A stretch of DNA of 64,000 bases from contig JBAZKH010000004.1 of assembly GCA_041650935.1 (NCBI GenBank), positions 5,040-69,039 on the forward strand. Direction: 5' to 3'. The notes beneath the pieces were generated by a model. The model was not told the origin of the DNA. It saw nothing but the letters and a program-made list of their open reading frames with translations, and searched no databases. Both the position numbers and the translations under genes were made by a program. Source of the DNA: Candidatus Omnitrophota bacterium. Its GTDB lineage: Bacteria > Omnitrophota > Gorgyraeia > 2-01-FULL-45-10. This document shows positions 17,223-57,430 of this stretch, piece by piece (position 1 is the stretch's first letter; each line of letters opens with the position of its first letter).

Positions 17223-20200
17223 ATGATGCGAAAATTAATTTCGGTTCTAGTAATCCAGTCTTTCCTTCTCTCTAACATCGCGTTCGCGGAAACCCTTCAA
17301 ACCAAACCCAATACGCCGCAAAATACCCAAACTCTTACAAATGCTTCGAGTATCGCAATCGAAAAAGAGTACGGGCTCATCAAGTCCAGGTTTATGGGCA
17401 ATTCCAACAAACTGATAGTAAATATCCAGGACGCCCATTGTAACTATGAGGCACAGACCAATATAGTCCGTATCTTAGAGACGCTTATAAAGAATCATAA
17501 TCTCAGCCTGATATCGGTCGAAGGCGCGGACGGCATCATCGATACGACATGGTTCAAGGCTTTCCCGGATGAAGAGGTGCGCAAAGAGGTCGCGACCTAC
17601 TTCATGAAGAAAGGCGAGATCACCGGTCCGGAATTCCTATCCATAACCCAGAACTATGCGATAAAATTATTCGGCGCGGAAGATAGAGCCGCCTATATAC
17701 AGAATTTAAACGCGTTTACATCCAGTTATCCGCTCAAGGCCGATACCGAAAAGTACTATAATTCGATAAAAGGCGCCCTCAATAAATTAAAAGGTTTCAT
17801 ATATTCTAACGAACTGCGGGCGATGGACGCCAAAGCCGCGGATTACGACTCAAAGAAGATGCAATTTAACGATTATATACGCTTTTTACAGGAGATGGCC
17901 GAGAGGCGTAAGCTTAACGTAAGAAGCTACGAGAACTTCTTCAGGCTCGTAAGCGTACTCGGCTACGAGAAGAAGATAGACTTCAACGTAACCGACAGGG
18001 AAAGAAGCGCCCTCATCGACGAACTCTCCAAGCTCCTGGATAAGGACGGCTTGAGCGACATGGTGGCGCAGTCGATAGCGTTCAAGTCGGGCAAGATATC
18101 GTCCGTGGACTTTTATGCCTATCTAAAGAAATGCACTATCGATAAGAATATCGACCTCGCTAAGAAGTACCCCAACCTCTACAACTATATAATATATAAC
18201 TCCGTATATTCCAAGATCGATAACGAACGGCTCTTCACCGAGATAAAGACGGTAGAGACCGATATAAAGGAACGGCTCTTCACGAACGACGACCAGAGGA
18301 CGCTCGATAAACTGTCGCGCCATATCGATATCCTGATCGGCATGGTGAATATAAAACTATTGAACGGCGATTTTAACTATTACCAGACGCACAAGGATGA
18401 CTTTACGCACGACTCTTTCGCCGGCTTTATAAAGAAGAAGGGCGAGCAGTACGGCCTTGCCTATGCCCTCGAGCCTCCGAGCGATGCGGTCGCGAAGGCT
18501 ATGCCGAAGCTCGAAGACTTCTACATGATCGCCACAAAGCGCGATAAGGCGCTGGTCGAGAATACCTTAAAGGAGATGGACAGGGAGAAACAGTCGATAG
18601 CGGTGCTCGTTACGGGCGGTTTCCATTCCGAAGGCATGTCCAGACTGCTCGAGAAGAGCGGCGTATCATATATAGTAGTATGCCCGACCATCACAAAGGA
18701 TGTACCATCGCCTTATATCCAGATACTTACGAACCAGAGAACGCCAATAGAAGATATATTGACGGCCCCGGACACAGCGAAACAGCGCATGCTTGCTCCG
18801 ATAAGCCGGGCACAGCTCGTTACGATGGAGCCCAAGAAACTCAAAGTATTCTTAAGGGCCTCTCCCGTAGAAGACGCCAAGACAAAAGACCTCATAGAAA
18901 GAGTCATAGACAATAATGTGGAGTTCAGGGATGACTGGTTCTTTGCCATTATGAGGGATTGGCTCAGGAAGACAGTGGCTGTTAATCCCAACCATCGCTT
19001 AACGCGCGAAAAGGCGGCTATGCTGGAGGCATACATGATGGGTATGCAGCTCAGCCTCGAAAATTGTCTGCATGAAACATGGCCGCGCCAGTCCGATGCC
19101 AAGATTACCGCCCAGGCGAAAAAGATGCTGGAAGCGATAGCGGCAACGCCCGGGTTCAATGATGCGTTTGAGCGGGCATTCACTGCCGTTGCGCCCAAAG
19201 CCGAACTCGATATGATACGAGCAAGTGCTAAGCCGGCAGGCAAAATATCTCTTGCCGAAGCCTACTCCTCACCCGAATTATTCAATGCATACATATTACA
19301 GGCGATGAAAGAGTTGACGAAAGTTATCCCTGAGCTCCCGCGTATTATGAGCGAATACTCTGCATGGAGAACAGCCGAAGTAGAGCCGCTAGAGGCACAA
19401 CTCGCAGATATGCAAAAGCGCTTTGATGGCATGGAATCCGATCCGCAAGCCGACGCTACAGCCGTTGCCGCGCTCAAGGAAGAGATAAGGGTTCTCACCA
19501 AGAAGATCGGGGATATGATAAAGAAGAAGGTCGAGCCTGTAGATGATCTTATTTCCGAAAAGTATAATCAGTCTGTCGCCGAGTCATATGTCGGTTCTCT
19601 CGAGAATATATCGACCGATAACTTTTTTAAGGATATACCATTACTCGAAGACTTCATGAAATCACCGGAATTTCCTCAATATCTTGAGCAGGCACGCGCA
19701 TTGACCGCCAGTACCGAATGCGGTTATATTGACACATTCGCCGGCGCGGCCTCGCGTCTGTTTGGTGAAGGCCAGAAAGCCGACCCTACCAAATCGCACG
19801 CCGCAGCCGATGTCTATGATATTGCCGACAGGATGGGTAAAAAGATACCCGCGGATGGCATCAAGGACCTTAGCGTAATCACACGTATAGCCGTCCAGAG
19901 ATGGCTTAATATAGAGGAAGAGCTAAAGAAAAAATACGAGCGAGCCGGTATAAAAAAGACGGATAAACAAATTATTAAAGAACGGCAAAAGATCATACGG
20001 AACAGGCCGTGGACTATTATAATAAACGACGAAAGCGGTTTTCCGCTTATGCAGGAGATAATAAAGAATAATTTTTACGGTCATAATCCCGAACACGTGC
20101 TTTTTGTGGTCCAACCTACATTCCACGGATATGGTTTTAATGCATCGGGAAAACCTATATGCATGACGAATACCAAGCCTACCCCTGTCGGGCATGGCTC

Positions 20201-23200
20201 CGGCACTATGCAGGTCGTCGCGAATAACAGGGCTTTCTGGATAGACGCCAAAGGCGCTATTCATAATATTAAGGAAGACGCGGAGTCTTATCTGCGCAAA
20301 AGAACGGGAGTGAAGTACTGGATACAGGGCCGCGTAAATGATTTGATAGTAATGGGGTATTCGTCATCACCCCATCCGACCCTTTCGCCGTATGATATCG
20401 ACATGGGCATCATGGCCCTTGCGCTCAAGATGATGGGAAATCCCGACAGGCTCGATGAGGGCAAGAACGCGGTATTGGAGCAGACCCGTACGGATCCGAG
20501 GATAAAGGGCGGGACGCCTCTGGCGCTTAATGGAAAACATTTCTTGATGGAAAAAGTCGCAATGAATGCCAAGACCAGAAAAGTCGTTATAGGCCCCAAT
20601 CCACAGAACAGGTTCTATATCTATTATAAATGGATCGCCCTGCAGGAGATGAAGAAGCAGGGGCTCCCGGTCTATTTCAGGTTCCGGGACGGATTTATAT
20701 ATCCGGAGACGGTTACCGGCGACCTCACAATGCTGAAAAATATGAACGCAGGTTTCGCGATGGAGGCTTCACGTCAACTCGACGATTTTAAGAATCCGGA
20801 GACGGCGGACCAGGCCGTTGAGGCCAGTGATAGGCAGGATAAAAGGCCCGGCTTCGCAAGATGCATCGATGAGTTAAGGGCGTCCCAGAAAGATACCAGG
20901 ATCACCGGTATAGAATTGGTCCCAGATATAGCAAGGCACGTCGGCGCCGGCCCCGCCGGGACTCAAGCCCAGGGCGGGACAGGCGCGATACGCGCTAACG
21001 GTGAAGGCGTCTCGGCCGAGGATCATGGCGTCAGGACGAGCATCGCAGGCATACCTGCTGAGAAAAGGCTCTATGCCGAACGGACCCTGAACGGAATAAT
21101 TAGGAAGTTGATAGATTTTAATAGGCAGGCCGCTTCGCTTTTGCCCTATCATAATGTAGATAGTTATTCTGACCGGACGATACCCGAACTAGCGAAGGAA
21201 AACAATGTAGGCGTTAAAGGGGCCGATCTTGATAAGGTAAAAGAGTTGCAAGGAAAAGTGGAAACCAAATTCCCGGGGTTGAATTTTGTCATACTGAGAG
21301 GGCTTAAAGAAGAACTTGTAAAAAATAATATTACGCCGGACCTTTACTTCCATTACGGCCATATTAGAAGCTCCATATATGTGGATGAGGTTGACTTCCT
21401 GTATCTCTTATCGCTTCCGGACGGTTTAGATCTTATGATGGAGGCAATATGCCATGAAGTAGAGCATATAAAAAATCCGCAGCGTAACGGCGAGACGGAT
21501 GTCGAATACGAAGCGAGGATCGAGGGTATCGCATTGACAAAGAACGTCCGCGCGGCGCTTAACGAAAGAGACCTTGTCAATAATGTGCAGAAATTATCAA
21601 GAGTAGGGAATGGTATAGTGGCAGGTGCCGGTCTTACGGACATACATGGACGAAAATTCACACCCGACGGGCGTTTCTTTACCGCCGACGGCGAGATGAC
21701 GGAAGGCCTGAAAAAGTTTATGGACAGCCTCGACGAAGCGTCCGTCCAGCAGGCGCTCGAAGCGGGCATTATGTATTACGATATCCGTTCACCGTTCTGG
21801 AGAGACGGCGCCGACAAAGGGCATCCCGAATTTGCTGTTGCTTTTGCCTTTGCTTTCGCGAAAAAACTTCAGCAGAAGACCGGAAAAAAAGACGGCATAG
21901 TCCTTCACATAGGAGTCGATTGCTATAATAAACACTTTGAAGCGGCCCAGATTTTTGTGGATGCCATATTGCGCACCGGTATATGCGATAACGGAGGCGG
22001 TATCTATTACTGGGGCGTGATAAACGGCGGAGATATGCGTAATTATGCCCAACTCTATGATGCGGTAAACGGCACCGGCGGTAACTGGGCATTTTTTACC
22101 ATGAGTCATGTTAAAAATGACTTTTTAGGCGCAAAACTGGGTATCGATTCCCAGGTCTACTGCGGTCCTGAAGTGCGGCATTGCGAAGGCGTCACAAGCG
22201 GCACGTTGACCGATGCTATTGAGGAAAGAGATTTTGCTCCAATTAAGCATACAAAACCGGAAGGGAACATTGTGACCATTTCCAAGTTCCTGGATAATAA
22301 TATACAGGTAGCCGCGGATATGATCCGGGCAACTTCTGCCCCGAAGAATACTCCTACGAAAGAACTTCTGAAAGGCGCCAAGCTTTGTGTCGACATGAAT
22401 GGAAGCCCGATAGGTAAGAATCTCGTTGATATACTTAATGCTTTGGGCGCGGATGTAATGGTCGATAACGGAGTGCTTGAGCCTGATTATAAGACTGACT
22501 ATATAATCGATCCCAATGAGCATAAAAAAGATGCGATGAAGCGCCTGCGGGCTAAAGCCAAAGAGATCGGCCGTGTCATATTAGCAGTTGATCCCGACGG
22601 TGACAGAGGTTCTATAGTAGCCGTGGGGCCGGACGGTAACCCCGTATCGCTAAGCGGCGCGAAACTCTTGCTCTTAAGTATGGAACAACTCGCCATCAGC
22701 TATTATAAGCAGGGAAAGACGCTCACTATCATAAACGATATGAGGACTGGAGTGAGCGCGCGTGATCTGGCGAATGCGATCAATGATAAATATAGGAAGG
22801 AACTGGGGGGTAAGGATTTAGTCAGGGTCATTCCCCACGAGGCAGGATATCCTTTCTTTATGAGAGGCATGGCCGCGCTTCCTGCGGACCTGGCCGTAGA
22901 AAATACGACACATGCCTTTACTAACCCCATGACCAATACAAACTGGGGAGCGCCAAAAGATTATAAGCGGCCCGATGGAAAAGGATATCAGGGCGGGGAC
23001 AATGCCGCGCTTTATCTCATATCTTTATTGGGCGCCATGGTCCATCAGTGGGATGGTAGAAACCCGGTTGAACAGCTTGACTGGATAGAGAAGAATTACA
23101 ACCTCAGGCCGACGGTCGATGAGGAAAGAAAGCCTGCACTGGCAAAAGAAGACGATAGATTTAAATACATGGTTGCTGACAGGATGAAAGAGCTGGCCGA

Positions 23201-26200
23201 TCAATGGTTTGCGGGTGATGAACGGTTCCTAGTCAATTTTAACGACCCTAAAGTAACGGTGGTAAGCGGAGTCCATATAACCAATAGCATTACGGGGGCC
23301 ATGATGCTGGTGAGGTTCTCCAATACAGGAGCGACCTTTACAATATCCGGCGAAGCATATAAGGGCGTGGAAGGCCACGAGACAGATGAGCTTTATGAAA
23401 TGTTGGGGTTAGGGCAGCTTATCATTAAAACGGCAGTGGAGCAATTACAGGCGGAAGGCAATAATTTTACATTTGATCTGGCAGATGCCTCCGACCTGGC
23501 AGGAAAATTTGACGTAAACAGGTACTTCCCGCAAGGGTTACCCGGCGTGGCGAATGGACTCGCCGCTTCGGATCTTGAGAAAGCACTCGGTAAGTCTGAC
23601 AAAGTAGTTTTGCTCGGCAATGCCGAGGTAGCTACTTATGCGGCACGGTGCGGCACAGATAAGGCTATGGCCATTCCACACGGGTTCTTTAATATTAACC
23701 CTCAAGCCGCGGCGCCGAAAGATCTAACCATCAGTGTAGTGGGCTCGGTGACCACATGGTCGGATATGAGGTGGGTAAAAGACGTTGTAGGCTTGGTGAA
23801 GGAGATTAGAAGGCGGTCTGTTGAAACAAAAGCTCTTGGTTATGTGGCCGGTAAATTTGTTCCGTATAAGAATCCGGACGGAACCGTCGTAGATGAATTG
23901 AGAGAGTTAAGAACGAACCCGGACTGCATTATATTGAAAGCAGAAGATCTGGAGAGTGCATATAGGCAAACAGGCGGATTTACCGATCTAGCTTCATTTA
24001 AAACATGGCTATGGGAACGATCGGACGGAGGCAAAATTGTAATTGTCGACGGTGAAATAAATAAGGAAGAAGTGAAAAAGTTGCAGGCGTCTCTGGTTGA
24101 TTTCAATACTCAGATGTACAGGGAGTTATTGAATGGTTTCGAGCCTAAGGTAGAATATTCCGGCACTCTTCACGAGAATCCGGGTAGCTCGATTCCCGTG
24201 GTTTTTGAATCTCCTTCTATGACGGATGTCGCGTCAGAAGGTCTCAATATGGTAACTGTTAAGTTTGGACCCGACGGCAAGGTAGATTTTTCAGGGGCGG
24301 CGCAACGTATTATCGAATTGATAGGAAACCCTGCAATGTATAACGAACAACGCGCCCAGAGTTTAGCGGCGGCGCAGAAGTTGACAATGGCAGACGTCGC
24401 TTCCAGATATTTGGATGTTGCAAGAAAAGCGGCCTCAAAGAAGCCGGGCGAGGCCATACGTATCGCTATCGTTACGCCTATTTCTTTGAGAAACTACGGA
24501 GAAATATTGAATAACGGTTTTAGCGCATTAAACGCGGAAAACATAGTCGTGGATCTACTTGTGCCAAACGACAGTGAGGCTATGGGTGCGTTTGTTGCAC
24601 GAGTAAAAGACGGCCATTACGATGTCAATATACTACAGCTGCATGGAGCGCACACTGAAAAGCCTGTAGCTTTTGAGGATTTTGGAGATACTAAGAATGT
24701 CCTCCTCGTTCACAGGCCGGAAGAGGTTTTGGCGAGGGAGAAGACGGGCGTGACTCCGGATCGGGCTACTCGCGATAAAACGACGGATGCGTCGCGCTCA
24801 GACGGCACGATCGACAAGAACCAGGCGAAGATCGTAGACCTGTCAGGTTACGCGGGGCTCGACATAAAACTGACGAGCGGGACCGGGGAGCTGATTTTAG
24901 GCGGGAATATAGTATCCGAGCCGAAATGGGTAAGACCGCTCGCGGCCGCCGGCAACAGCATAATGAATCCGGGTGCCATAACAAGCGTGAATCGCGATAG
25001 GGTCGTATACTACGGGTATAGGAACGTGGCGGCCCGGCAGAGCGCCTCGGCTGTAGATCATAACCACCTGAGGTTCGATATAACGGTGCTTCAGCCCGGC
25101 GTTGTAGCGGCGGGCGCCGACGAAGAATTCATAATGACGAAAGGGCACATCCATCCCAGCCGCCGGGTAGTGTTTACCGATACGACTTCGCAGCCTGCTC
25201 CGGTCTGGTATCCCGAATTCTACGAAGTATGGAGCGGATACGCGCTATATGTCCAGCAGGGCAGGAATCCCGAAACCGGCGAGTTCGAAGTCGAGGTTAC
25301 ATTCGCTAAGCCCGGCGACAAGGTACTGCTCAAGCCCGGTTATTCGCACAGGACGGTCAATATAGGTAATGAGCCGCTTGTTATGGCGAACTGGATAGCC
25401 GAAGACGTCGGAGGGAAGAACGCGAGAGTAGAAGGCGAAGAGAGGTACGATGTAAGTAAAAAACCCGCGGAAACTGTCGCGCCTGCAGTGAGGCCGGACT
25501 TCTCGGAGATAGAGCGGAAGAATGGATATGCTTATTGGGTAGAACGTACTCCGGAAGGCGGCATCCGTTTCGAATTTAATCCGAATTATTCACCCGCCGA
25601 GGACCTTGGTTACGGGCCGCGGCGCGCGCAGCTTCGTTACGCGACGCCTGCCGCCGCAATACCGGCGCTCGGCCTTTCGAATAGCGAGCCGATGTATAAG
25701 CAAGCCGCTAATAGCGCGCTTAGCAGTTTCTTAAGAGGCGGCATGTCGGCTCCGGAAAGACGGGCCGAGTATAATGAATTGGCGGCTGCGGCATCTAATA
25801 AGGAAACAAAGGCAACGTTTGAAAGCAAGATACGGCAAGCTTTACCGGATGTTACGGTTACGGCTCCTCCGTCGAAGGGTGGGGCAAAAGCCGTGGAAAG
25901 CGATACTGCGGCAATTACGGATGACATAGATCCATTCGTAATTAAAACAGTGGAAGATGCTACGGGCGGCAAGCCTCTTACAGGGCCTAATGCCATAGAG
26001 ATCATGGCCAGCATTAAGCATGAAGGCGCGCTTTTGTGGTCGATTCTAGAGGATATCAGTAAAAAGAAGTTTGCCGGGAAAAAGGTCAAGCAGGTCGTCC
26101 TTTTGAGGGACACCGACCTTTATCCTACAAGCCTGGCACATTCGGGCGAAGATGCCGTGAAAAAGTATCTTGGGGATACGCTAATAGAAGTGTCCGGCAG

Positions 26201-26798: not shown

Positions 26799-27485
26799 AT
26801 GGCGGCGGCATATAAAAGGAAGAATTATTTCATCAATAAACCCTTTCAGCTTAAGTATACCATTCTGATAGTGGGGGCGCTCCTGGCGGTGATGCTTGCG
26901 AGCGGTTTCGGCCTTTATATGGGGATGTGGGGCTCGATAATCGAGAACTTCTCGAAGTTCAAGGTCTCGCAGAGCCTGGAGAACGTGAACCGCATTACCG
27001 ATTACGAGGCGGCGCGCTACCGGAAGGGCGATTACCGTCTGGAGAAGATATTCCGCGAGGCGGAACTCTTGAGCGATCAGGAGCGGACGACACTTAAAGA
27101 GGCGCTCCGTTCCGTCAACAGGTCGCTCGTCCCGAAGATTGTTATCCTCACCGCGTTGATATTCCTCGCCGGGATATTCCTGTCGCACAAGATAGCCGGT
27201 CCCATGTACCGGATAGAGCGGTCGGCCGAGGCGATCCGGCACGGCGACCTGCGGGTGAATTTTAAGATAAGAAAGAATGACGAGATGAAGGATGCCGCCG
27301 CCGCGCTCGAAGAGATGGTCGAGACGCTACATAGCGATGTCAAGAGGATGAAGGCCGAGTCGATCGCCCTCGAAGAGAAGATGGATTCGCTTGTCAAAAT
27401 GGGCGCGATACCCGAAAACGAAATTACCCGCCTGAAAGAGATATTGAACAGCATAGACTCGGTGTTATCGAAATATAAGACGTGA
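26799..27485 (+). CDS. Small two-TM membrane protein with a HAMP domain and a coiled-coil tail, with no output domain.
   Basis: ATG at 26799 with an RBS. The track's longer start at 26703 lies inside the terminator hairpin. AGPMYRIERSAEAIRHGDLRVNFKIRKNDEMKDAAAALEEMVETL is a canonical HAMP domain. The stop overlaps the next gene's start. Confidence 0.6.
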   Translation: MAAAYKRKNYFINKPFQLKYTILIVGALLAVMLASGFGLYMGMWGSIIENFSKFKVSQSLENVNRITDYEAARYRKGDYRLEKIFREAELLSDQERTTLKEALRSVNRSLVPKIVILTALIFLAGIFLSHKIAGPMYRIERSAEAIRHGDLRVNFKIRKNDEMKDAAAALEEMVETLHSDVKRMKAESIALEEKMDSLVKMGAIPENEITRLKEILNSIDSVLSKYKT

Positions 27486-30128: not shown

Positions 30129-30163
30129 AATAGTGTAGCCTATGTAATAATGTCATGGCAATC

Positions 30164-30191
30164 TGCAGGGCACACTTAAGTGTGCCCTGCA
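30164..30191. repeat. Palindrome family C copy 1: tgcagggcacacttaagtgtgccctgca.
   Basis: A perfect 28-nt palindrome between the OMP and SBP genes, preceded by aatagtgta...gtaataat. It is related to 47121-47152. Confidence 0.6.
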
Positions 30192-44811: not shown

Positions 44812-44860
44812 ATTAAATATCAAATTTGTCATTGAACACCGTATTCTTGGGCAAAAATAT

Positions 44861-47152: not shown

Positions 47153-47198
47153 AATGTGCAGAAAGATAGCTACGTACTACCTCTGTAAAAGGATAGCA

Positions 47199-49460: not shown

Positions 49461-51235
49461 AAAAGATAACGTTAGCGGTTTTAGCGATAGTACTCGCGGC
49501 AACGGCCTTCGCAGCCGAGCCGGCAAATTTCGACGATGAACTTGCCCGCATAGCTCATGCCGATTCCGACGCAGCCATAATGAAGATCACCGAAGAGGCG
49601 ATCGCGAAATGCGCGGCGGCGGCGGATTTCGAAAAACTTGCCTTGAGCATAAAGAATTTCGTTTCCGAGAAGTCCGATTTCAAGTATTCGAACGCGTTAT
49701 ATTATGCCATCGCAAAGACCAGGATAGACGAGCTCACGTTCCTTTCCCAGAAGAATGACATAGAATCCGGCAGGCTCTATATGTCCCTGAACGAAAGTTA
49801 CCGCATCGAGGCGGCCGATTATATCGATAAGGTGCTCGGTAACGCGAAATCGAAAGACCTCGCCCTGGACGCGTATCTCCTGAAGTTCCTTACGATAAAG
49901 GATGAATTCCAGCCGCAGAGGACGGAAGCATTCCTAGATGAGATGGCGGATAGGATCGCGAAATATTCCGACGACGGCGCGCTCAACAGGCGCCAGCTCT
50001 CGCGCATAGCGGGTGAATTGACGGATAAGGGGTCCGGTAATTATGCCATGAAGTTAAGGATCTCGTATGCTCAGAAGGTCGACCCGAAATCGGCCCAGGA
50101 GGTATTGGAGGATATACGCAGGGACGGCGACAAAAGCTTTGCTCAAGGCAACATGAGGGGCGCCGCCGCGTTATACGATACGTACATAAATTCGGCGCAG
50201 TCATATTTCAATAAAGAGGCCATGGGCGCCAAGGTCATGGAGATAGCGGAGCGGTACTTCGGTTCCAACAGGTACCGCGATGCGAGAAAATATTATGAGC
50301 TGTTTGCGCAGGGCTATCCGGATTCCAAAGTCATAGATTACTGCAAATATAAGACGGCGCTCTGTTATTGCTATGAGAAGGATTATGCCAATGCTGTTGC
50401 TAACCTCGAAAGTTTCCTGGGGACTTACCAGAATTCCGTATGGTTTGACCGCGCCTTCGAGACGCTTTGCCGCATATATTTCGGCGAATTCCCGAAAGAG
50501 AAAGCCGCTGCCGGGCTCCAGAAACTGATCGACAATTATTACCGGAAGAATATAGGCGATTACGCTTATCTGCTCCTGGGGGCTCTCTATTACTCGGACA
50601 AAGAGTATGACAAAGCGGCCGAGTACCTCAAGAAAGTGGATATCAACAGCGTCTATTCGTACGCGGCCGAGATATTAAGCGCCGATATAAAAGATATAAA
50701 GAACGGCAGCAACCCTTCGTATAGTTTCGGCGGGAAAGATAAATACAGGATGTGGGAACCGGGAAAGCCTAGTAAAATAGATATGGTTCCTATGGCGGCC
50801 GGGGACGCGAGCGCGTGGATTAAAGGCGGCGGCAAAGGCGAGGACAAGAAACTGGAAGTTACTTATAACGAGGCCGGGGCCGCGCAGATTACAGTCCCGC
50901 CCGGCACTAAGGTAAAATTCGCTCTCTCTACGCTTATAGACGACGACCGCTTCGCAGAATATCTGCAGGATAAAGAGGATTTGAGCAGGCTTCCCAAGAA
51001 GGTAAAAGATGAGGACGAAAAAGATTTCATTGCGCTCCAGTGGAAGAGTGAGGGCGGGCGGTTTGTAGATGAGAGACAAACAAGGGACAAGATATGGCAG
51101 GCTCCGGATGAACCGGGCGCCTATAAGATATCTGTCCTTGCCGACGACCTGGGCCTTGTCCGCACACCTGATAAAGGTGTAAGAAAGGACCCGGCCAAGG
51201 AAGTCGCAATTATCGTGAATGTCGTAAAATCATAG
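49457..51235 (+). CDS. Secreted TPR-like repeat protein.
   Basis: GTG at 49457 overlaps the upstream TGA (GTGA), with RBS AAAGGGG. Signal peptide VKKITLAVLAIVLAATAFA|AEP. Helical repeats (...YYELFAQGYPDSKVIDYCKYKTALCYCYEKDYANAVANLESFL...). Confidence 0.7.
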   Translation: MKKITLAVLAIVLAATAFAAEPANFDDELARIAHADSDAAIMKITEEAIAKCAAAADFEKLALSIKNFVSEKSDFKYSNALYYAIAKTRIDELTFLSQKNDIESGRLYMSLNESYRIEAADYIDKVLGNAKSKDLALDAYLLKFLTIKDEFQPQRTEAFLDEMADRIAKYSDDGALNRRQLSRIAGELTDKGSGNYAMKLRISYAQKVDPKSAQEVLEDIRRDGDKSFAQGNMRGAAALYDTYINSAQSYFNKEAMGAKVMEIAERYFGSNRYRDARKYYELFAQGYPDSKVIDYCKYKTALCYCYEKDYANAVANLESFLGTYQNSVWFDRAFETLCRIYFGEFPKEKAAAGLQKLIDNYYRKNIGDYAYLLLGALYYSDKEYDKAAEYLKKVDINSVYSYAAEILSADIKDIKNGSNPSYSFGGKDKYRMWEPGKPSKIDMVPMAAGDASAWIKGGGKGEDKKLEVTYNEAGAAQITVPPGTKVKFALSTLIDDDRFAEYLQDKEDLSRLPKKVKDEDEKDFIALQWKSEGGRFVDERQTRDKIWQAPDEPGAYKISVLADDLGLVRTPDKGVRKDPAKEVAIIVNVVKS

Positions 51236-51295: not shown

Positions 51296-54200
51296 ATGAT
51301 CGAGTGCTGCAGAAAAAAATGTTTTTCCCTGTTGATCCCGGTTATTTTACTAACTGTCTGCGCCACGGCCGCGTTTGCCGATGAGGGCCGCCGGTCCTCG
51401 ATCGTGACGGACCCGACCGGCTTCAGTATCCTGGAGGCCGGTGAAAAAGGCATGTTCAACATGGGGCCTGCCATGGGCGATGTGACGAGCGAGCGCGAAG
51501 AATTTATCAATAAAGACGTCCTGAAATTCGATTACACAATATTTGGCGGCGCGATAGTCGGCGTATGGACGAAGAGTTTTCCTCCGAGGCTGGGACCGAA
51601 GCTGGTTGACGCTGTGAGGATCGGCGTAAAAATTTCGACGAAAGAACAACTGCGCCAGATATCGGTAAAGGCGGAGATAAAAGGCAAGAATGCCGTCCAG
51701 ACGATACCGCTGCGTCTTGAAAATGGATGGATACATGTGCGTGAGGCGGTCGACTGGAACAGGATAGGCGCTCTCAATGAGGCTGTATTTGTGGTCAGCC
51801 CTATGGTAACGAATAAGAAGCTCGATGGGATCATCTATTTTGAGCTCGATTTCTACAAGATGACATTTCTGGAGAAGCGCCTTGCCGCAATAAAGGACGT
51901 TATAGTCCTGGCGCTGGCGCTTTTCTTAATTTTGGCAGCCGGATTTTTAGGCAGGCTATTCGTCCGGAAAAGCGGCGATGGCCGTGCGGTGTCGGGCATC
52001 AAACGGGATTTCCTGTACGGTATAACAGCCGTCTTGATCGCAAGCGCCGGTCTCGGTATATATGCCATGGGAATGGAGAACCCCCTCAATACCGGCCTTC
52101 GTTTCGATTTCGTGATAATTGCGTTCCTGGGTCCGGCAATAGCAGAAATTTTTAAACGCGGCCTCACCGGAAGACACCTCACACCCGGTGAAGTTTTTCA
52201 GAATGTTTTAATCTCGGGTTTCCTTGCCGCCGCTTCAAGCAGGATGACTCTCTTGCAGGCCCCTTCTTCATGGGTCCAGCTTATCATGTTCAATAATTTT
52301 GCGGCAGCCCTTACCTTTATAATATATCATGCGGCCAATGGGCGGGCGCTTGCAGTGCATGGTAAACACTTAAGGCCTATTACCGTAGCGCTTATCGGCG
52401 GAACGCCGTATATATTCAACTGGCTTCTTCTTCTGGAAAGTTCCGGCATTGTGGAGGCTATCGGTAACGCCTTTACTTTCGGCATATGGGTATACTGGTC
52501 TGATATATTACAGAATATAGGAAGGTTTATAGTAATATTCGTCTTTAACGAAATCATCGCCAACGGTATCAGTCTTGCGTTGAGGGAGAGGGTGCTCAAA
52601 CCCGCAAAGGCCCATATAGCCATCTTTTTGGTCTCCGTGGGCGTTGTGATAGCCCCGATTATTGCCGACCTCGGCTCGACAGCGGCGATAGCGTCGCTGC
52701 CGGCATTCCTGAAGGCTGTCGCGTGTATCCTGACAAGCATGCTGTCTTTCGGCGGTCTATGGGCGGAGGTCTACCTGATCACCGGAATGTTTCTGGATAG
52801 CGGGAAACTTATAGCGCCCTCGGCCGAAACATTGGTGAGGCATGTAAACGCCGGCACGAAGAAGGGTATGGCATTCAGCGCGATTGTGATGGCGATCCTC
52901 TTTGCGCTTAGCATGGTGATCGCGGCGCCGATATCGCAAAAAGTAATTAGCGGGATACCTCTTGTGATCGGGATTATAGTCGGAGCTATCATCTTCCCGT
53001 TTGCCAAGACTATTATGGAGACCTTCGACGGCAGCCTGCCGTTTTTCGAGAGGACGCGTTACAGTTATAAAGACGTGTCATTATATGCCAGAGGCGCAGT
53101 CGTAGGATTCGGCTTCGCCTACGCCCTTAGTAAGGGTATGGTGGGCCGCCCGATGGGCGACAGGGTCCTCTTCGGTTTTATCATAGGTATCTTGTCGTCC
53201 GGCGGGGTGAGTTTCCTGAGAGATGTGGTCTGGGCCTTTAAAGGCCAGGGCCGCGTCCACACCTGGAAGCTCTATTTCGTCGATTCCATATTCGGCGCGT
53301 TTATAGGGAGCGCCGCGGCGTTCTATATGGACGCCCTGCAGGTCCCGGTTATCGTCGATAAATTTAAACTCTATGTAAGTTCCGGATTCCAGGCGATGGA
53401 GTACATAACCTACCCGCTTATCAATAACAATAAATGGGGCAATATAAACCTCGGCGCCTATACCGGCGGAGTGAAGCTGTTGTATACAGAGTCTTTGGCC
53501 GGCGTCATCAACTGGTCGATCGCGGCATGGCTCTTTGCCATAAACAAAGTCTTTATGCAGGCGTATTTCGAGAAAGACAAGACGCCTATAAAATTCTTCT
53601 TCTCGAAGGCAGGATTTGCCCAGCTCGTCGAGCACATGATATATGTTTTGCGGTGGGGCCTCTGGATGTCGCCGATCATATTTACCGGGTTGCGCATGAT
53701 GCCCGACCCGACGTGGTATAACCAGGACGGAGCCATCCGCACCATCTTTGCCACCTTCAATAATATTACTATGTCGCCGGAGGGTTTCAGGCAGTGGAGC
53801 CTGCAGGTATTTATATGGATAATGGCCTTCGATTTCTTCCGGGTACTTATCTGGATGGACCATATGGGACTGCGTGTCGCGACGCTGGTCAATTTGAGCT
53901 TCCTCGGCCTCGACAGGCTCGATGAGAAACTGGCCAGGTTCATAGGCCCGGCCGCGGCACAGAGATATATTCCCGACGCCGTCAAGCGCTTCGCGACATG
54001 GGCGCCGCTCTTGATTCCTTTTTATATTCCGCGCGGCAGGGAGTGGGACCAGGTGTGGGATACTTCGCAGGCGATGCAGAATGCGGCTATGTCCAGGAAG
54101 GGAATGGTTGCCGTGTTCCAGGATTTTCCGGCCCTTGAAAAAATACTTATCCTCGCAGGAGCAGTGATCCTATTTACCGCCGTCTCGTTCGGCGTGCGCG

Positions 54201-57200
54201 CCCTGCACCGCCGCCGCAAGGCCCGCAGCGGTGAGAGTTACGAGATGTCCAACATGGAATACAGGGTGATACTTAGAAATACCGGGGAGATATTCAGCGA
54301 GGGTATTCACAAGGAATGCGACGTGACCAGGCGCTCTTACGACCCGATGGACCCTTGCGGAAGGATACTCTTTATTATGGATGCGGCCGAGAAACCCGAT
54401 AGCGCAAAACGCTTCTGGCCGGTCGTCGGAAATTTCCCGCAAGGCAAATTCGAGGCCTCTTCTATCGAAAAGAAGGCAGATGCCTTCAATATCCTCAATA
54501 CATCCAACGGTATCAGGACGACCGTAAAGATCGGCCTGCCCGACAAAGAGAGCACGGTGGAGATATGGGAAGTTACCGTAGAGAATACGACGGATAAGGC
54601 GCGCCGGATCAAAGTTGTGCCGTATCTGGAATGGGTGCTCGTCGGAGGGATTCACGACAGGTTCCATACGCAGTACGCAAGGTTATATCCCGAGATGGAG
54701 TATGCGGCCCAGGCCAACGCTATCCTCGCTTATCAGAAGAGCGCTAAGACGATGGGACTATTGGCGAGCGATATTCCGCCGGAAGGTTTTCTTACTTCAC
54801 GCATCGATTTTATCGGCCGGAGCCGGAGTATCTGGTCGCCGCGGATCGCCCAGACTATGGATTTCCTGGGAGCCGGGGATACGAACCCTTATCCGACGTT
54901 CGATCCGATAGGGAGCCTTGCGGTAAATGCGGAATTGCAGGCCGGGGGTTCTATAAAGATGCGTTTTGCAATAGGTTTTACAAAGAATAGGAAGATGGCG
55001 CTCGAGATGATAACAAGGTTCCTGAAGCCGGCTGTGTCCAAGGCGGCTGTTGCGCCGGAGAAGAAGAAAGAGCTTTTGATAGGCCACGGCGAGATCCCCC
55101 CGGGGACGCCGCAGCCGTACTCGACATTTACCGATAACGGCAGGCGGCTCGTCGTCCATACGCCGTTTACGCCGCGGCCGGTCGATCATGCCGTGTCGAA
55201 TGCCATACATTCCATAATGGTCACCAACCGCGGCCTTCACACGTCGTCCAACGGCAATTCACAGCAGAACCGCCTGACGCCGGATTGGCCGGATATAGTT
55301 ACAAAAGAGATACCGACCGAGGCGTTCTATCTATACGACCCGGACGCCAAAGAGTGGTATTCGCCGACCTATCTTCCGCTCGCCGATGGCAGCGCGAAGA
55401 ACGAATCGGAGTTCGGCGTGGACGGGACGGCAGTCTTCCGCATGTCCCGCGGGGACATTGCGACGGAGCTGACGGTATTCGTTCCGCCGGATGATCCCGC
55501 AGGCATCTATCTATTAACGATAAGGAATAACGCAAAACGCGAAAAGCGCCTGCGTATCGTGCCGTATTTCCAGATGGTTCTGGGGTTCCAGCCCGAAAGA
55601 GCGGGTCCTCTGGTGATGCGTTACGATAAGACATTGCAGACACTCTTCTTCTCTAACCCGCGCAACATCTTCCGTACAGGATGGGCCTTTGTCTCCACAT
55701 CGATGCGGCAGGTGCGCGTAGAGACGAATCGCGGCAGATTTTTCGGCAAGGGACGCGATGTTGTGCATCCGTTCATGGTCAAGGAAGGCTCGCCGGACAG
55801 GAAACAATCCGGCGATGAGTCGCAGGTGGCATCTTTCTTAAGCGAGGTGCGGATACCAGCCGGAGGAGAATATACGCTCGCGGTCGTTATGGGACAGACC
55901 GACGAATGCAAGGACGCGCGTAAGATCATCGAGAAGTATAAAGACCTCGACGCCGCGCGTAAGAGCCTTGAGGATACAAAGAAGTGGTGGTTAAGTCTCA
56001 TGGGAACGCTAGAGGTCCAGACCAACTCTCCGGAGTTCGACCGTTACCAGAACTGGCTTAAATACCAGGCTCTCGCGGAGCGCATATGGGCCCGCCGGGG
56101 TTTTTACCAGACGAGCGGCGCTTACGGTTTCAGGGACCAGCTGCAGGATACCGTGAATCTTATATGGGTCGATCCGGCCCTGGCGCGCAAGCAGATAATA
56201 TTACATGCCTCTCAGCAGTTTATCGAAGGCGACGTATTCCACTGGTTCTTTACATTGACAGACGGCCGTACTGCATTTTCGTGCCGGTCGCATGCCTCCG
56301 ATAACCCGATATGGCTGGTATGGGGCGTTGCGGAGTATATAAAAGCAACGGGGGATTCGTCGATCCTGGACGAGATGGCTTCGTACGTGGTATCGCAATT
56401 CCCGTTTGCAAAGCTTCCCAAGAATAAACAGGGATGGGGCCACCTGTATCACAGGACGACCCGCGCGGATACTGTCTACAGACACTGCGTAAAGTCGCTC
56501 GACCTCATACTGAATGATCGTATGGGCAAGAACGAACTGCCGCTTATCCAGACCGGCGACTGGAATGACGGTCTCGACGAGATAGGCAGCGAGGGGCGGG
56601 GCGAGAGCGTATGGCTCGGCTTCTTCCTATATTATATATTGAGGGACATGCTCGGTGTGATCGAGCTAAAAGAAGGCCCGAAACGCAGGGCGCATTACGC
56701 TGCCAGGATGGAGGCGCTAAAAGCCGCTTTAGAAAAGACATGGCGCTCGGACCGTTACCTCAGGGCGATCCATGACGACGGCACCGAGATCGGCATAAAA
56801 GGCAGCGGCGTCTGGGAGATAGACGCGCTTACCGCGTCGTGGGCCGTCATGAGCGGTATAAATTTCGAAAGGGGCCTTACGATATTCAATACCGCCCTTA
56901 GCATTCTTGAAAAAGATAACGCGATACTTTTGGGATGGCCCGCCCTGCGCGAAGATACCAAGCCGTATCTCGGCCGCTCGAGCAAGTACCCCGAAGGCGT
57001 CCGCGAGAACGGCATGTATTGCCATGGCGTCCAGTGGCTCGTAAAGGCCGCGAGGATCCTGGCGGAAGAATTCGACAAGAGAAATCAGGCCGCCGAAGCG
57101 GATGAGTATAGAAAGACCGCTTACAGGCTCTGGCTCAAGGTCTCGGCGATCCCGCGCGTAAAAGAGATGGAACTCTACGGGGGACAGCCGAACAAACAGT

Positions 57201-57430
57201 CCGCCGATATACTCACTACCTTCGACCGCGGCCGCATGATATGGCACGGTTATACCGGCGCTGCCGGATGGATGCTGCGCCAGGCTTTTGAAGGCGTCGT
57301 CGGTGCGTCGCTTGTCAAGAATGAGCTCATCCTGCCCAAGGACCTCGATAAGCCAAGAGGCGACCTTAAGGTAAAGAGCGTGCGCCGCGACATAACGAAA
57401 AGCCCGATCAAAGATCTGAAACCCTGTTAA
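51296..57430 (+). CDS. Giant membrane protein (2,044 aa): signal peptide + CBM-like domain + large polytopic membrane region + C-terminal GH94 domain. It is like the cyclic-β-1,2-glucan-synthase C-terminus, but lacks a recognisable GT84 domain.
   Basis: Signal peptide MIECCRKKCFSLLIPVILLTVCATAAFA|DEG. About 700 residues of stacked TM helices. C-terminal YGFRDQLQD (56122-56150) and GDWNDG (56554-56571). Confidence 0.85.
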   Translation: MIECCRKKCFSLLIPVILLTVCATAAFADEGRRSSIVTDPTGFSILEAGEKGMFNMGPAMGDVTSEREEFINKDVLKFDYTIFGGAIVGVWTKSFPPRLGPKLVDAVRIGVKISTKEQLRQISVKAEIKGKNAVQTIPLRLENGWIHVREAVDWNRIGALNEAVFVVSPMVTNKKLDGIIYFELDFYKMTFLEKRLAAIKDVIVLALALFLILAAGFLGRLFVRKSGDGRAVSGIKRDFLYGITAVLIASAGLGIYAMGMENPLNTGLRFDFVIIAFLGPAIAEIFKRGLTGRHLTPGEVFQNVLISGFLAAASSRMTLLQAPSSWVQLIMFNNFAAALTFIIYHAANGRALAVHGKHLRPITVALIGGTPYIFNWLLLLESSGIVEAIGNAFTFGIWVYWSDILQNIGRFIVIFVFNEIIANGISLALRERVLKPAKAHIAIFLVSVGVVIAPIIADLGSTAAIASLPAFLKAVACILTSMLSFGGLWAEVYLITGMFLDSGKLIAPSAETLVRHVNAGTKKGMAFSAIVMAILFALSMVIAAPISQKVISGIPLVIGIIVGAIIFPFAKTIMETFDGSLPFFERTRYSYKDVSLYARGAVVGFGFAYALSKGMVGRPMGDRVLFGFIIGILSSGGVSFLRDVVWAFKGQGRVHTWKLYFVDSIFGAFIGSAAAFYMDALQVPVIVDKFKLYVSSGFQAMEYITYPLINNNKWGNINLGAYTGGVKLLYTESLAGVINWSIAAWLFAINKVFMQAYFEKDKTPIKFFFSKAGFAQLVEHMIYVLRWGLWMSPIIFTGLRMMPDPTWYNQDGAIRTIFATFNNITMSPEGFRQWSLQVFIWIMAFDFFRVLIWMDHMGLRVATLVNLSFLGLDRLDEKLARFIGPAAAQRYIPDAVKRFATWAPLLIPFYIPRGREWDQVWDTSQAMQNAAMSRKGMVAVFQDFPALEKILILAGAVILFTAVSFGVRALHRRRKARSGESYEMSNMEYRVILRNTGEIFSEGIHKECDVTRRSYDPMDPCGRILFIMDAAEKPDSAKRFWPVVGNFPQGKFEASSIEKKADAFNILNTSNGIRTTVKIGLPDKESTVEIWEVTVENTTDKARRIKVVPYLEWVLVGGIHDRFHTQYARLYPEMEYAAQANAILAYQKSAKTMGLLASDIPPEGFLTSRIDFIGRSRSIWSPRIAQTMDFLGAGDTNPYPTFDPIGSLAVNAELQAGGSIKMRFAIGFTKNRKMALEMITRFLKPAVSKAAVAPEKKKELLIGHGEIPPGTPQPYSTFTDNGRRLVVHTPFTPRPVDHAVSNAIHSIMVTNRGLHTSSNGNSQQNRLTPDWPDIVTKEIPTEAFYLYDPDAKEWYSPTYLPLADGSAKNESEFGVDGTAVFRMSRGDIATELTVFVPPDDPAGIYLLTIRNNAKREKRLRIVPYFQMVLGFQPERAGPLVMRYDKTLQTLFFSNPRNIFRTGWAFVSTSMRQVRVETNRGRFFGKGRDVVHPFMVKEGSPDRKQSGDESQVASFLSEVRIPAGGEYTLAVVMGQTDECKDARKIIEKYKDLDAARKSLEDTKKWWLSLMGTLEVQTNSPEFDRYQNWLKYQALAERIWARRGFYQTSGAYGFRDQLQDTVNLIWVDPALARKQIILHASQQFIEGDVFHWFFTLTDGRTAFSCRSHASDNPIWLVWGVAEYIKATGDSSILDEMASYVVSQFPFAKLPKNKQGWGHLYHRTTRADTVYRHCVKSLDLILNDRMGKNELPLIQTGDWNDGLDEIGSEGRGESVWLGFFLYYILRDMLGVIELKEGPKRRAHYAARMEALKAALEKTWRSDRYLRAIHDDGTEIGIKGSGVWEIDALTASWAVMSGINFERGLTIFNTALSILEKDNAILLGWPALREDTKPYLGRSSKYPEGVRENGMYCHGVQWLVKAARILAEEFDKRNQAAEADEYRKTAYRLWLKVSAIPRVKEMELYGGQPNKQSADILTTFDRGRMIWHGYTGAAGWMLRQAFEGVVGASLVKNELILPKDLDKPRGDLKVKSVRRDITKSPIKDLKPC
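51390..51860 (+). other. CBM-like β-sandwich at the ORF4 N-terminus.
   Basis: ...VLKFDYTIFGGAIVGVWTKSF...AVRIGVKIS...IIYFELDFY follows the pattern of the other CBM-like domains in this window. Confidence 0.3.
54240..57430 (+). other. GH94 (glycosyl transferase family 36-type) phosphorylase-like domain of ORF4.
   Basis: Collinear with the 31495 GH94 protein: the N-terminal β-sandwich ...YRVILRNTGE..., the (alpha/alpha)6 core with FRDQLQD, and the catalytic DWNDG loop. Confidence 0.6.

Follow-up and report, generated by a model that had tools for sequence, protein, structure and literature searches.

The window analysed here is a 64,000-nucleotide stretch of DNA from a Candidatus Omnitrophota metagenome-assembled genome (MAG). 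ORF and family searches recovered all genes that a first-pass annotation had listed, on the plus strand and tightly packed (Table 1); the range of 17223–57430 given there for the locus is incomplete, as it excludes G1 at one end and o682, both permeases, and the ROK gene at the other. The four giant proteins that it had described are borne out, with very long ORFs of at least 5,648 (G1), 3,146 (G2), 3,017 (G3), and 2,044 (G4) amino acids. The inventory further comprises two GH144 homologues, one GH189/GH193-like enzyme, one SGL-clan domain in G1, two GH94 domains of the type found in cyclic β-1,2-glucan synthase (Cgs), five CBM11-like modules (in o206, o768, o682, G4, and o296), an oligosaccharide ABC importer, a ROK family gene, and a two-component system. 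Seven domains from rare families associated with β-1,2-glucan are found inside 60 kb, in an arrangement that recurs in other genomes, and this co-occurrence is far beyond chance.

Table 1. Genes and domains of the locus (window coordinates, strand, and main properties).
Feature	Position	Strand	Description
G1	1–16947	+	3' part of giant gene; runs off left edge
SGL-clan domain in G1	1402–2730	+	(α/α)6-like; aa 468–910
PTS enzyme-I-like domain in G1	6124–7539	+	PEP-utilising; NCBIfam E = 1.6e-48
G2	17226–26666	+	N-terminal signal or anchor sequence
G2-family N-terminal head	17226–18875	+	conserved; EreA/ChaN/TraB/Tiki-like fold; invariant H71, E99, H467
PGM domain in G2	21903–23405	+	phosphoglucomutase-like; motifs TMSH, DPDGDR, RFSNTG
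GPI domain in G2	24978–25415	+	cupin-type glucose-6-phosphate isomerase; metal ligands kept (GHIH, E, H)
HAMP protein	26799–27485	+	small membrane protein; conserved 5' of first GH144 gene (o414)
o414	27482–28726	+	secreted GH144 endo-β-1,2-glucanase homologue
o461	28779–30128	+	conserved secreted Tyr-rich protein
o447	30155–31498	+	lipoprotein substrate-binding protein (SBP) of CUT1-type oligosaccharide ABC importer
o790	31495–33867	+	cytoplasmic GH94 phosphorylase; catalytic motifs intact
IS200/Y1-transposase-like gene	33892–34554	-	
G3	34990–44043	+	signal peptide
ROK/polyphosphate-glucokinase-like domain in G3	37525–38445	+	
AlaDH/PNT-like domain in G3	38668–39897	+	
Response regulator and histidine kinase	44047–46336	+	OmpR-type and HAMP; pair conserved in other Omnitrophota genomes
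o206	46471–47091	+	secreted stand-alone CBM11-like module
o768	47154–49460	+	secreted; CBM11-like module and GH144 endo-β-1,2-glucanase homologue
o722	49454–51235	+	exported TPR protein; conserved directly 5' of G4
G4	51296–57430	+	signal peptide at N-terminus
CBM11-like module in G4	51380–51871	+	periplasmic
Membrane domain of G4	51872–54250	+	polytopic; ~800 aa
GP1-like β-sandwich in G4	54251–55105	+	
GH94 domain in G4	55121–57337	+	Cgs-type
o682	57517–59565	+	secreted; CBM11-like module and SGL-clan enzyme nearest to GH189/Cgs cyclase
o314, o294	59666–61512	+	two ABC permeases
o296	61530–62288	+	membrane-anchored; C-terminal CBM11-like module (hhalign 94%, E = 1e-7)
o408	62285–63511	+	ROK family; N-terminal HTH

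Both o414 and o768 match PF10091 (E = 2.7e-68 and 4e-60, respectively), have the characterised XcSGL (8xul; E = 4.7e-75 for o414) as their nearest solved relative, and keep the general-acid glutamate. They account for two of the three secreted proteins previously described as GH144-like; o682, the remaining one, lies nearer to GH189/GH193. Its top matches are the GH189 domain of TiCGS and the middle domain of Cgs, and we consider it GH193-like because it has neither the nucleophile nor the specific insertion of GH189 and also lacks the His-His pair. It agrees with the published description of the GH193 (SkSGL) group in being nearest to GH189, lacking the α4–α5 insertion and nucleophile, and retaining the general-acid glutamate, but differs in its N-terminal CBM11-like module and in keeping the glutamate equivalent to E1400, a residue reported as highly conserved among Cgs (TiCGS paper). 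A GH144-like domain had also been proposed for G1, and this holds at the level of the SGL clan but not for GH144 proper: the Pfam match to PF10091 reaches only E = 0.028, while a local HMM made with 18 sequences of the SGL clan and of Cgs cyclases scores 28.9 bits, and the general-acid glutamate (TNESR) and the SW.G..FE motif (LSWKGCKFEF) are present.

The GH94 assignments of o790 and G4 are confirmed by Pfam matches to the catalytic domain (E = 2e-110 and 4e-59, respectively); the GH94 catalytic motifs FRDQLQD, GDWND, RENG..H, and YTGxAGW are kept, and the closest solved relative of both domains is the C-terminal domain of Cgs. With the profile of the G4 family, Cgs reaches 496 bits and cellobiose phosphorylase 189 bits, a preference of about 300 bits for Cgs; o790 scores nearly equally against the two (550 and 496 bits) and does not match 5h3z of the known SOGP clade at E ≤ 1e-3. 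We infer the substrate of o790 from its gene context, not from its sequence.

G4 is the conserved centrepiece of the cluster and an undescribed membrane protein. Neither this family nor the β-1,2-glucan link turned up in the literature searched, and the membrane domain of G4 has neither a Pfam family nor a strong PDB fold match. G4 shares with Cgs, the solved structure that it matches best, the location in the inner membrane and, in its C-terminal ~1,060 aa, the layout of a GP1 β-sandwich followed by GH94, and the cyclase-domain relative o682 is encoded alongside. In one homologue (P0016), G4 and o682 are naturally fused with the o682 signal peptide as transmembrane link, a topology that fits GH94 inside and o682 outside. 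Unlike Cgs, G4 lacks the GT84/GT2 domain, the N-terminal domain, the in-chain cyclase, and the Rossmann-like insert; it has ~20 predicted helices compared to 6 transmembrane segments in Cgs and a periplasmic CBM-like module for which Cgs has no equivalent, and o682 is an exported protein devoid of the cyclase nucleophile.

Among the genes for uptake and regulation, the sugar ABC transporter is represented by one SBP, whose best solved relatives bind other oligosaccharides, and two permeases, but its ATPase gene is absent from the window. With its signal peptide, 8.9% tyrosine content, and conserved aromatic C-terminus, o461 is plausibly the putative outer-membrane barrel that its sequence had suggested before. 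The ROK regulator and the two-component system are present as annotated, and o408 is likely a repressor.

The enzymes embedded in G1, G2, and G3 keep their catalytic motifs, including the His-domain and PEP-binding motifs of the PTS enzyme-I-like domain. G1 has ~40 hydrophobic segments and reaches at least 7,318 aa on the ENA contig, which itself is cut. G2 is a member of a large-protein family with varied cargo and more than 230 sequences, which have the N-terminal ~550 aa and partly also a C-terminal ~200 aa in common, and all members with a source name are from Omnitrophota; its cupin GPI domain matches Pfam with E of about 3e-20 to 6e-21, varying with the segment scanned. Regarding the "sugar-activation" enzymes of the first-pass annotation, no nucleotide-sugar enzyme is found among the proteins of this window, and UDP-glucose pyrophosphorylase domains are confined to relatives of G2 from other loci. 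The Sec-type signal sequences of G2 and G3 imply that their sugar-phosphate enzymes may not be cytoplasmic. G3 has essentially no homologues, and where the corresponding junction of the operon was read in other genomes, it is missing; the adjoining IS200-like gene and the low-GC patch around them suggest an insertion, probably a recent one, that carries G3. G1 and G2 fall into an already published class, the long multi-enzyme proteins of Omnitrophota ("Archaeovorins", West-Roberts et al. 2023; "multi-enzyme metabolic clusters", 2026 preprint) from the same phylum, with predicted export signals, PGM, GPI, ROK, and PEP-utilising domains in one polypeptide, and SBP, permease, and glycosyl hydrolase genes downstream, as West-Roberts et al. 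reported for most giant genes. However, G2, G3, and G4 have 2 to 3 kaa and stay far below the thresholds of 10 to 30 kaa in the published work, neither dockerin nor HEAT domains were detected in the copies of this window, and the published downstream hydrolases were not identified as β-1,2-glucan families.

Linkage of these genes is also seen elsewhere, as the order of the core operon is kept in four other Omnitrophota genomes. The view of a system built around megaproteins stands only in part. G1- or G2-like genes lie directly upstream in two other MAGs, with the order G1-like (a partial homologue), G2-like, HAMP, and GH144 in GCA_028699255.1 and G2-like, HAMP, and GH144 in GCA_026387175.1. 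In contrast, 10 kb read to either side of the operon in a complete genome contain no adjacent megaprotein; the G2-family gene of that genome is ~35 genes away, as counted by locus tags, in an unrelated context of PFOR and tRNA-synthetase genes. Furthermore, G3 is an orphan. The megaprotein link is lineage-specific.

Family matches and synteny in the four other genomes thus support well that β-1,2-glucan is the target, as proposed earlier. The proposed synthesis of this glucan is not supported: Pfam, NCBIfam, and PDB-sequence searches found no glycosyltransferase in the window proteins scanned, the GT84 and cyclase domains known from Cgs are missing in G4, and the separate o682 has no GH189 nucleophile. 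Uptake and catabolism are instead suggested by the importer, the cytoplasmic phosphorylase, and the ROK repressor. On sequence grounds, we see about an even chance that this cluster serves uptake and breakdown of β-1,2-glucan as a system conserved in Omnitrophota and organised like the maltodextrin system of E. coli. The exported o414 and o768 and the hydrolase-like o682, aided by the five CBM11-like modules, would open and shorten linear or cyclic β-1,2-glucan outside the cytoplasm, and the resulting oligosaccharides would be brought in by the probable outer-membrane barrel o461, the lipoprotein SBP, and the two permeases. In the cytoplasm, o790 would phosphorolyse them to α-glucose-1-phosphate (G1P) and glucose, with the genes controlled by the ROK repressor, the HAMP protein, and the two-component pair. 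In G4, the large membrane domain connects the glucan-binding module in the periplasm with the Cgs-type phosphorylase in the cytoplasm; most economically, G4 may thread glucan chains through the inner membrane, coupled to phosphorolysis or the reverse reaction. G1 and G2, with PGM, GPI, and SGL-like domains, would pass G1P on to fructose-6-phosphate and may feed from the cluster in this lineage.

This organisation is similar to known loci for β-1,2-glucan utilisation, the SOGP clusters of Listeria innocua and Lachnoclostridium phytofermentans and the SGL clusters of Chitinophaga pinensis and Xanthomonas, where an endo-β-1,2-glucanase and a GH94 phosphorylase likewise occur together with a regulator and an SBP-containing ABC importer. 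Compared to these loci, the Omnitrophota phosphorylase is Cgs/cellobiose-phosphorylase-like and not of the SOGP clade, a GH3 or GH1 β-glucosidase is missing from the cluster, and the membrane GH94 protein G4, the TPR protein, the CBM11-like modules, and the flanking megaproteins are additional. In E. coli, the maltodextrin system (LamB, MalE, MalFGK2, MalS, MalP, Pgm, and Glk) follows the same functional scheme of porin, periplasmic endo-enzyme, SBP-dependent importer, cytoplasmic phosphorylase, and finally PGM and glucokinase, but its families are unrelated, the linkage is another one, and G4 has no counterpart, so that the likeness is an analogy only.

The TPR protein and the possible outer-membrane barrel beside a membrane enzyme also fit exopolysaccharide secretion, which counts against uptake, as does the non-universal adjacency of the megaproteins. 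The near-equal scores of o790 against cellobiose phosphorylase and Cgs, its missing match to the SOGP clade, the other ligands of the nearest solved SBP relatives, and the signal sequences of G2 and G3 weigh in the same direction. G4 could then be a non-canonical β-1,2-glucan synthase-translocase that polymerises either from α-G1P, running phosphorolysis in reverse, or with a so far unrecognised transferase activity of its membrane domain, and passes the chain to the periplasm. The TPR protein and o461 would serve export, PGM, GPI, and ROK domains of the megaproteins would supply G1P, and SGL-clan enzymes would trim or remodel the product, as OpgG/OpgD and BcsZ do with glycans in other systems. 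The cytosolic part of G4 indeed matches Cgs far better than any free phosphorylase, UDP-glucose pyrophosphorylase and PGM domains are frequent in relatives of G2, and G4 homologues of Alphaproteobacteria (a Beijerinckiaceae genome) and a planctomycete-like contig stand alone without glucanase or importer genes, as would more readily be expected of a synthase that is self-sufficient. Periplasmic β-1,2-glucanases are needed for OPG biosynthesis according to PMC10514313. Nevertheless, this biosynthetic role seems rather unlikely given that neither a glycosyltransferase domain nor a nucleotide-sugar motif was detected, that o682 has no transglycosylase nucleophile, and that the cluster has features typical of catabolism, namely import via an SBP, a ROK repressor, and a phosphorylase free in the cytoplasm. 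We also know of no precedent for polymer export driven by a phosphorylase.

It is a somewhat more credible possibility, though still not the expected one, that G1, G2, and G3 are mere neighbours, i.e., general-purpose multi-enzyme proteins of Omnitrophota that run the hexose-phosphate metabolism of the organism itself on large scaffolds, at a position devoid of functional meaning. The megaprotein-free operon of the complete genome, the orphan G3 with its IS200-like gene, the varied cargo of the G2 family, and the phylum-wide spread of long multi-enzyme proteins (10.64898/2026.06.07.730766) all agree with this. However, G1 itself contains an SGL-clan domain, the order of megaprotein, HAMP, and GH144 genes recurs in two other MAGs, at least 7 contigs appear, from their identical lengths, to carry both the G2 and G4 families, and West-Roberts et al. 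report transport and hydrolase genes after most giant genes. By far the least probable option is another target such as cellodextrin, chitobiose, or laminarin. The similar scores of o790 against cellobiose phosphorylase and Cgs would allow it, as would the weak matches of the accessory modules to CBM11 and CBM30, which are known from the binding of β-1,4 and mixed-linkage glucans. Yet the G4 profile clearly favours Cgs, no GH5, GH9, GH16, or GH18-type enzyme is found in the window, and the characterised members of GH144, GH189, and GH192–194 covered by the literature read act on β-1,2-glucan only (PMC12102758), with four domains of this kind in the window. For uptake and breakdown as the preferred reading, Omnitrophota would thus hold a conserved cluster for the cutting, import, and phosphorolysis of a rare polymer, β-1,2-glucan, beside giant proteins.

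Searches against Pfam, NCBIfam and PDB sequences gave the domain inventory summarized in the table, which bears out the gene list of the first-pass annotation apart from the corrections given below. The span drawn around the system there leaves out several of the genes that it lists itself, and the "sugar-activation" enzymes it placed in the giant proteins do not include a nucleotide-sugar enzyme, of which the window has none. The outer-membrane barrel that it listed (o461) is only a candidate. All substantial ORFs lie on the plus strand, except for an IS200-like gene and the little minus-strand ORF next to it, and the junctions between window ORFs are short or overlapping. On neither strand of the whole window does any Rfam family attain its gathering score. 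A reading of the giant ORFs (G1 to G4) as artefacts of genetic code or assembly was rejected: Logan (SRR8542065) and ENA arrived at the stretch in independent assemblies, and the same genes are called in these and in NCBI/JGI assemblies, with the G4 protein identical to the NCBI entry of a Candidatus Omnitrophota MAG (contig of 178 kb). Likewise, over 100 full-length homologues of G4 exist, with 46–78% identity, and the catalytic motifs of the embedded domains are in frame, being intact in the PGM, GPI, ROK and EI-like domains of G1 to G3.

Gene order and features of the locus (window coordinates unless another locus is named; SBP, solute-binding protein)
Order	Feature	Position	Strand	Content
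1	G1	1–16947	+	PTS-EI-like PEP-utilising domain
	HEFGH in G1	52–66	+	aa 18
	HELGH in G1	13987–14001	+	aa 4663
	HELGH in G1	14770–14784	+	aa 4924
2	G2	17226–26666	+	PGM-like domain, cupin-type glucose-6-P isomerase
3	HAMP protein		+	membrane protein
4	o414	27482–28726	+	GH144
5	o461		+	secreted, Tyr-rich
6	SBP (o447)		+	lipoprotein
7	o790	31495–33867	+	GH94 phosphorylase
8	IS200-like gene	33892–36000 (region)	−	IS200/Y1-transposase-like, with another small minus-strand ORF beside it
9	G3	34990–44043	+	ROK/polyphosphate-glucokinase-like and AlaDH/PNT-like domains
	NAD domain of G3	38668–39897	+	aa 1227–1636
10	two-component system		+	OmpR-type regulator, histidine kinase
11	o206		+	CBM11-like
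12	o768	47154–49460	+	CBM-like module, GH144
13	o722		+	TPR
14	G4	51296–57430	+	see text
15	o682	57517–59565	+	CBM-like module, SGL-clan enzyme
	ABC importer	59666–63511	+	two permeases here, SBP as no. 6
16	permeases		+	two ABC permeases
17	o296	61530–62288	+	membrane-anchored, CBM11-like
18	ROK protein		+	with HTH
	L006, after operon	23041–26150		M48 peptidase, arginase, PvlArgDC
	L007, after operon	22424–24753		M48 peptidase, arginase, PvlArgDC
	L008, after G4 homologue	16209–18293		694-aa protein

Two of the three secreted proteins of the SGL (endo-β-1,2-glucanase) clan, o414 and o768, are clear members of GH144 (230 and 204 bits against PF10091, with a gathering cutoff of 27) and are putative β-1,2-glucan-specific hydrolases. 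Their best solved relative is Xanthomonas XcSGL (8xul; E 4.7e-75 and 8.6e-67), and CpSGL (5gzh) matches them at E 2.5e-48 and 4.1e-42. Following the residue roles described for GH144 enzymes (PMC10834661, PMC12102758), both keep the general-acid Glu (CpSGL E211/XcSGL E239) and carry Ile, a GH144-typical hydrophobic residue, at the position of TfSGL D446. The third protein, o682, is most similar to the cyclisation domain of cyclic β-1,2-glucan synthase (Cgs; TiCGS 8wy1, E 6e-44) and keeps the acid/base Glu (E1356) and the neighbouring E1400 in TEPR and SMFEAL motifs. At the site of the GH189 nucleophile (TiCGS E1442), however, o682 has Pro, as does the homologue fused to G4 in the protein P0016, and the His-His pair (H1536/H1537) is replaced by Leu-Asp in o682; nucleophile and pair are kept in 15 of 15 aligned true Cgs. 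The GH189 insertion of ~165 aa is missing as well (8wy1 chain residues 142 to 308 are skipped where o682 continues without a gap at 396–398), as are the long alpha5 helix and the extra alpha4–alpha5 helices, and o682 is therefore ruled out as a GH189 enzyme. Its sequence fits the published description of GH193, an inverting-glucanase group neighbouring GH189, a tentative assignment drawn from GH189-negative features. The "GH144-like" domain that had been noted in G1 stands at the level of the SGL clan only: aa 468–910 score 28.9 bits with a local HMM of 18 SGL-clan and Cgs-cyclase sequences, and the general-acid Glu and the SW.G..FE motif are present.

Both GH94 domains of the window, the free phosphorylase o790 and the C-terminus of G4, score above cutoff for PF17167 and PF06165 and keep the catalytic DWND Asp as well as the Arg, His and Thr motifs of the phosphate site. 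The best solved match of both is the C-terminal domain of Cgs (550 bits for o790, 371 for G4), but this preference is large for the G4 family profile (Cgs 496 vs cellobiose phosphorylase 189 bits) and small for o790 (550 vs 496 bits). No match of o790 to the 1,2-β-oligoglucan phosphorylase (SOGP) 5h3z was found at E<=1e-3, which rules out its placement in the SOGP clade. Given the small Cgs preference and the missing SOGP match, the assignment of β-1,2-glucan or sophoro-oligosaccharides as substrate of o790 comes from gene context, not from its sequence.

G4 consists of a signal peptide, a ~160-aa module, a ~800-aa region for which modelling gives about 20 helices (pLDDT 73), a final TM with a basic stretch, a β-sandwich and the GH94 domain. 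With hhalign (88%, E 3.5e-6), the ~160-aa module proves to be a relative of the CBM11-like modules in o206, o682 and o768; another such module, the fifth copy in the window, forms the C-terminus of the single-pass membrane protein o296 between the permeases and the ROK gene (hhalign 94%). The cytosolic part is laid out as GP1+GP2/3, as is known from the C-terminal domain of Cgs (PMC10901819). Yet G4 is ruled out as a Cgs orthologue, since neither GT84 nor GT2 was found in aa 1–1275 (Pfam E<=0.5, NCBIfam, PDB phmmer and profile searches) and neither the N-terminal domain of Cgs nor its in-chain GH189 cyclase was found in G4, the cyclase-like o682 being encoded separately. Permissive Pfam and NCBIfam scans of aa 1–1275 gave at most weak sub-threshold matches and nothing convincing, and hhalign of thirds and halves detected no internal repeat in the membrane domain, for which we can only infer a role.

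The source-named full-length homologues of G4 are nearly all from Omnitrophota, and their membrane part has dozens of invariant positions. With only the membrane domain as query, an exhaustive HMMER search retrieved 451 cluster representatives, and all five long ones that were scanned carry GH94. Family members with a name from outside Omnitrophota belong to a Deltaproteobacteria MAG, a Beijerinckiaceae bacterium and Gemmataceae. In P0016 (2,724 aa), G4 and an o682 homologue are fused with the o682 signal peptide as TM link, which fits a GH94 domain inside and o682 outside. Several longer homologues (2.4–2.7 kaa; P0011, P0014, P0025, P0043 and others) appear, judged by eye, to have a number of tandem periplasmic CBM-like modules. 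The Beijerinckiaceae and planctomycete-like homologues stand alone; downstream of the latter (locus L008) lies a gene for a 694-aa protein without Pfam match and with faint similarity to o682 around the SGL-clan motifs (BLASTP E=0.001), possibly a highly diverged partner from the SGL clan.

The operon order recurs in related genomes, for which the first-pass annotation had proposed a synteny comparison. Locus L006 (JGI) has SBP, GH94, (response regulator, histidine kinase), CBM11-like, GH144, TPR, G4, o682-like, two permeases, a small CBM-like gene and ROK, and L007 (complete genome CP070780.1) shares this order except that the CBM11-like gene follows the permeases. Further on, both loci continue with genes for an M48 peptidase, an arginase and a pyruvoyl-dependent arginine decarboxylase (PvlArgDC), a stretch before which the window ends. 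In GCA_028699255.1 the operon comes after relatives of G1 (PEP-utilising plus HEAT domains; 40% identity across ~1,050 aa) and of G2, and in GCA_026387175.1 after a G2-like protein and other large multi-enzyme proteins; in CP070780.1, the G2-family gene lies ~35 genes away by locus tags in unrelated context. No G3-like gene stands between GH94 and the next gene in L006 or L007. Because G3 has a single partial homologue among 5.8 billion proteins, is missing at this junction from those syntenic operons that were read across it and adjoins an IS200/Y1-transposase-like gene and a dip in GC content (41.7% where G3 begins vs ~50% elsewhere), it is most likely an insertion, seemingly recent, into a conserved operon, and we reject it as an integral part of the system. 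Directly after its ROK-like kinase, G3, whose signal peptide is of Sec type, has an alanine-dehydrogenase/transhydrogenase-alpha-like NAD domain; outside aa 846–1636, permissive scans with Pfam and NCBIfam gave no convincing match, weak sub-threshold hits at most.

G1 is open from the first base of the window and called with at least 7,318 aa on the ENA contig, whose end still cuts it, as the Logan contig is cut too, so that no more than the last part of a giant gene falls in the window. Its three HExGH motifs are found inside or next to groups of hydrophobic segments and recall site-2-protease/M50 or M48 membrane metalloproteases; the Pfam M48 match is weak (E=0.021). The G2 family comprises more than 230 proteins of 1.8–5.4 kaa, all source-named members being from Omnitrophota, which share an N-terminal part of ~550 aa (50–70% identity) and, in about one-third, a C-terminal part of ~200 aa around variable middles (PGM, UDP-glucose pyrophosphorylase, NTP-transferase, GPI, PFK, PGK, FBPase, transaldolase, CofD, ROK). 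No mutual similarity was detectable among G1, G2 and G3, and neither the C-terminal half of G1 nor the first ~1,500 aa of G2 gave a convincing match in permissive scans with Pfam and NCBIfam, weak sub-threshold hits at most. The class of multi-enzyme long proteins to which these three belong, by Omnitrophota origin and several unrelated metabolic domains per polypeptide, is already described: West-Roberts et al. (10.1101/2023.11.21.568195) reported giant Omnitrophota proteins with GPI, PGM/PMM, FBPase, aldolase and pyruvate-phosphate-dikinase domains, raised the same localisation puzzle and noted SBPs, permeases and glycosyl hydrolases downstream, and a 2026 preprint (10.64898/2026.06.07.730766) defined "multi-enzyme metabolic clusters" with PGM and ROK modules. 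G2 and G3, at ~3,000 aa, fall below the length thresholds of both studies (>=30,000 aa and >=10,000 aa, respectively), which compare to at least 7,318 aa for G1. Neither paper contains GH94, GH144 or "glucan" in the β-1,2 sense, and the literature searched held no paper combining Omnitrophota with GH94, GH144 or β-1,2-glucan in such a context.

The small genes together make up the classic Gram-negative pattern of oligosaccharide uptake, with a possible porin, a periplasmic endo-enzyme, an SBP-dependent importer and a cytoplasmic phosphorylase. The maltodextrin system has these same steps, followed by PGM and glucokinase, and this stepwise parallel favours a role of the cluster in uptake and catabolism of β-1,2-glucan, a reading by analogy that we hold with middling confidence. 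Among solved relatives of the SBP, the sophoro-oligosaccharide binder Lin1841 is only a mid-rank match. Neither the window nor the syntenic loci that were read contain an ATPase gene for the importer, which presumably relies on a shared ATPase of the MsiK type with its gene elsewhere. A biosynthetic cluster, which we consider less likely but still of real weight, would be in line with the Cgs-like cytosolic part of G4, the stand-alone occurrence of G4 homologues, the TPR protein together with the possible o461 barrel, and a precedent for periplasmic β-1,2-glucanases in OPG biosynthesis (PMC10514313), but no transferase is detectable and the transglycosylase nucleophile is missing from o682. 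Synthase-dependent exopolysaccharide secretion may offer counterparts for the TPR protein o722 (its periplasmic TPR scaffold) and for o461 (its outer-membrane β-barrel), whereas no GT2 or PilZ was found that could correspond to its inner-membrane GT2 synthase with c-di-GMP receptor. The first-pass view of a β-1,2-glucan synthesis, remodelling and uptake system built around megaproteins thus holds in part: the co-occurrence of genes that it described is confirmed, and uptake is the side that we favour.

Loci for β-1,2-glucan utilisation are of a known kind, and so are the megaproteins of Omnitrophota; new are their combination, a membrane GH94 family without GT, and the placing of the "downstream hydrolases" in β-1,2-glucan families. 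The architecture of the G4 family (CBM-like module, ~800-aa familyless membrane domain, Cgs-type GH94) is widespread, and we found no description of it. A bolder and quite improbable proposal is that this family represents a new class of membrane machine, in which a phosphorylase would drive the threading of β-1,2-glucan across the inner membrane without nucleotide-sugar GT or ATPase; it could work by processive import with phosphorolysis or as a G1P-dependent synthase-exporter. Many Gram-negative bacteria produce β-1,2-glucans, cyclic or osmoregulated periplasmic, which are rare elsewhere, and Omnitrophota are uncultured, possibly host-dependent nanobacteria suspected to be predators or epibionts. 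If the proposal is true, the whole Omnitrophota cluster would harvest the periplasmic β-1,2-glucans (OPGs, cyclic glucans) of Gram-negative hosts. The activity of G4, once worked out, would widen what is known of polysaccharide translocation and put right a frequent mis-annotation. For the "glycosyl hydrolases downstream of giant genes" of Omnitrophota, specific, assayable enzyme families can now be named, and a conserved β-1,2-glucan system in these bacteria gives a concrete, testable idea of their food or product.
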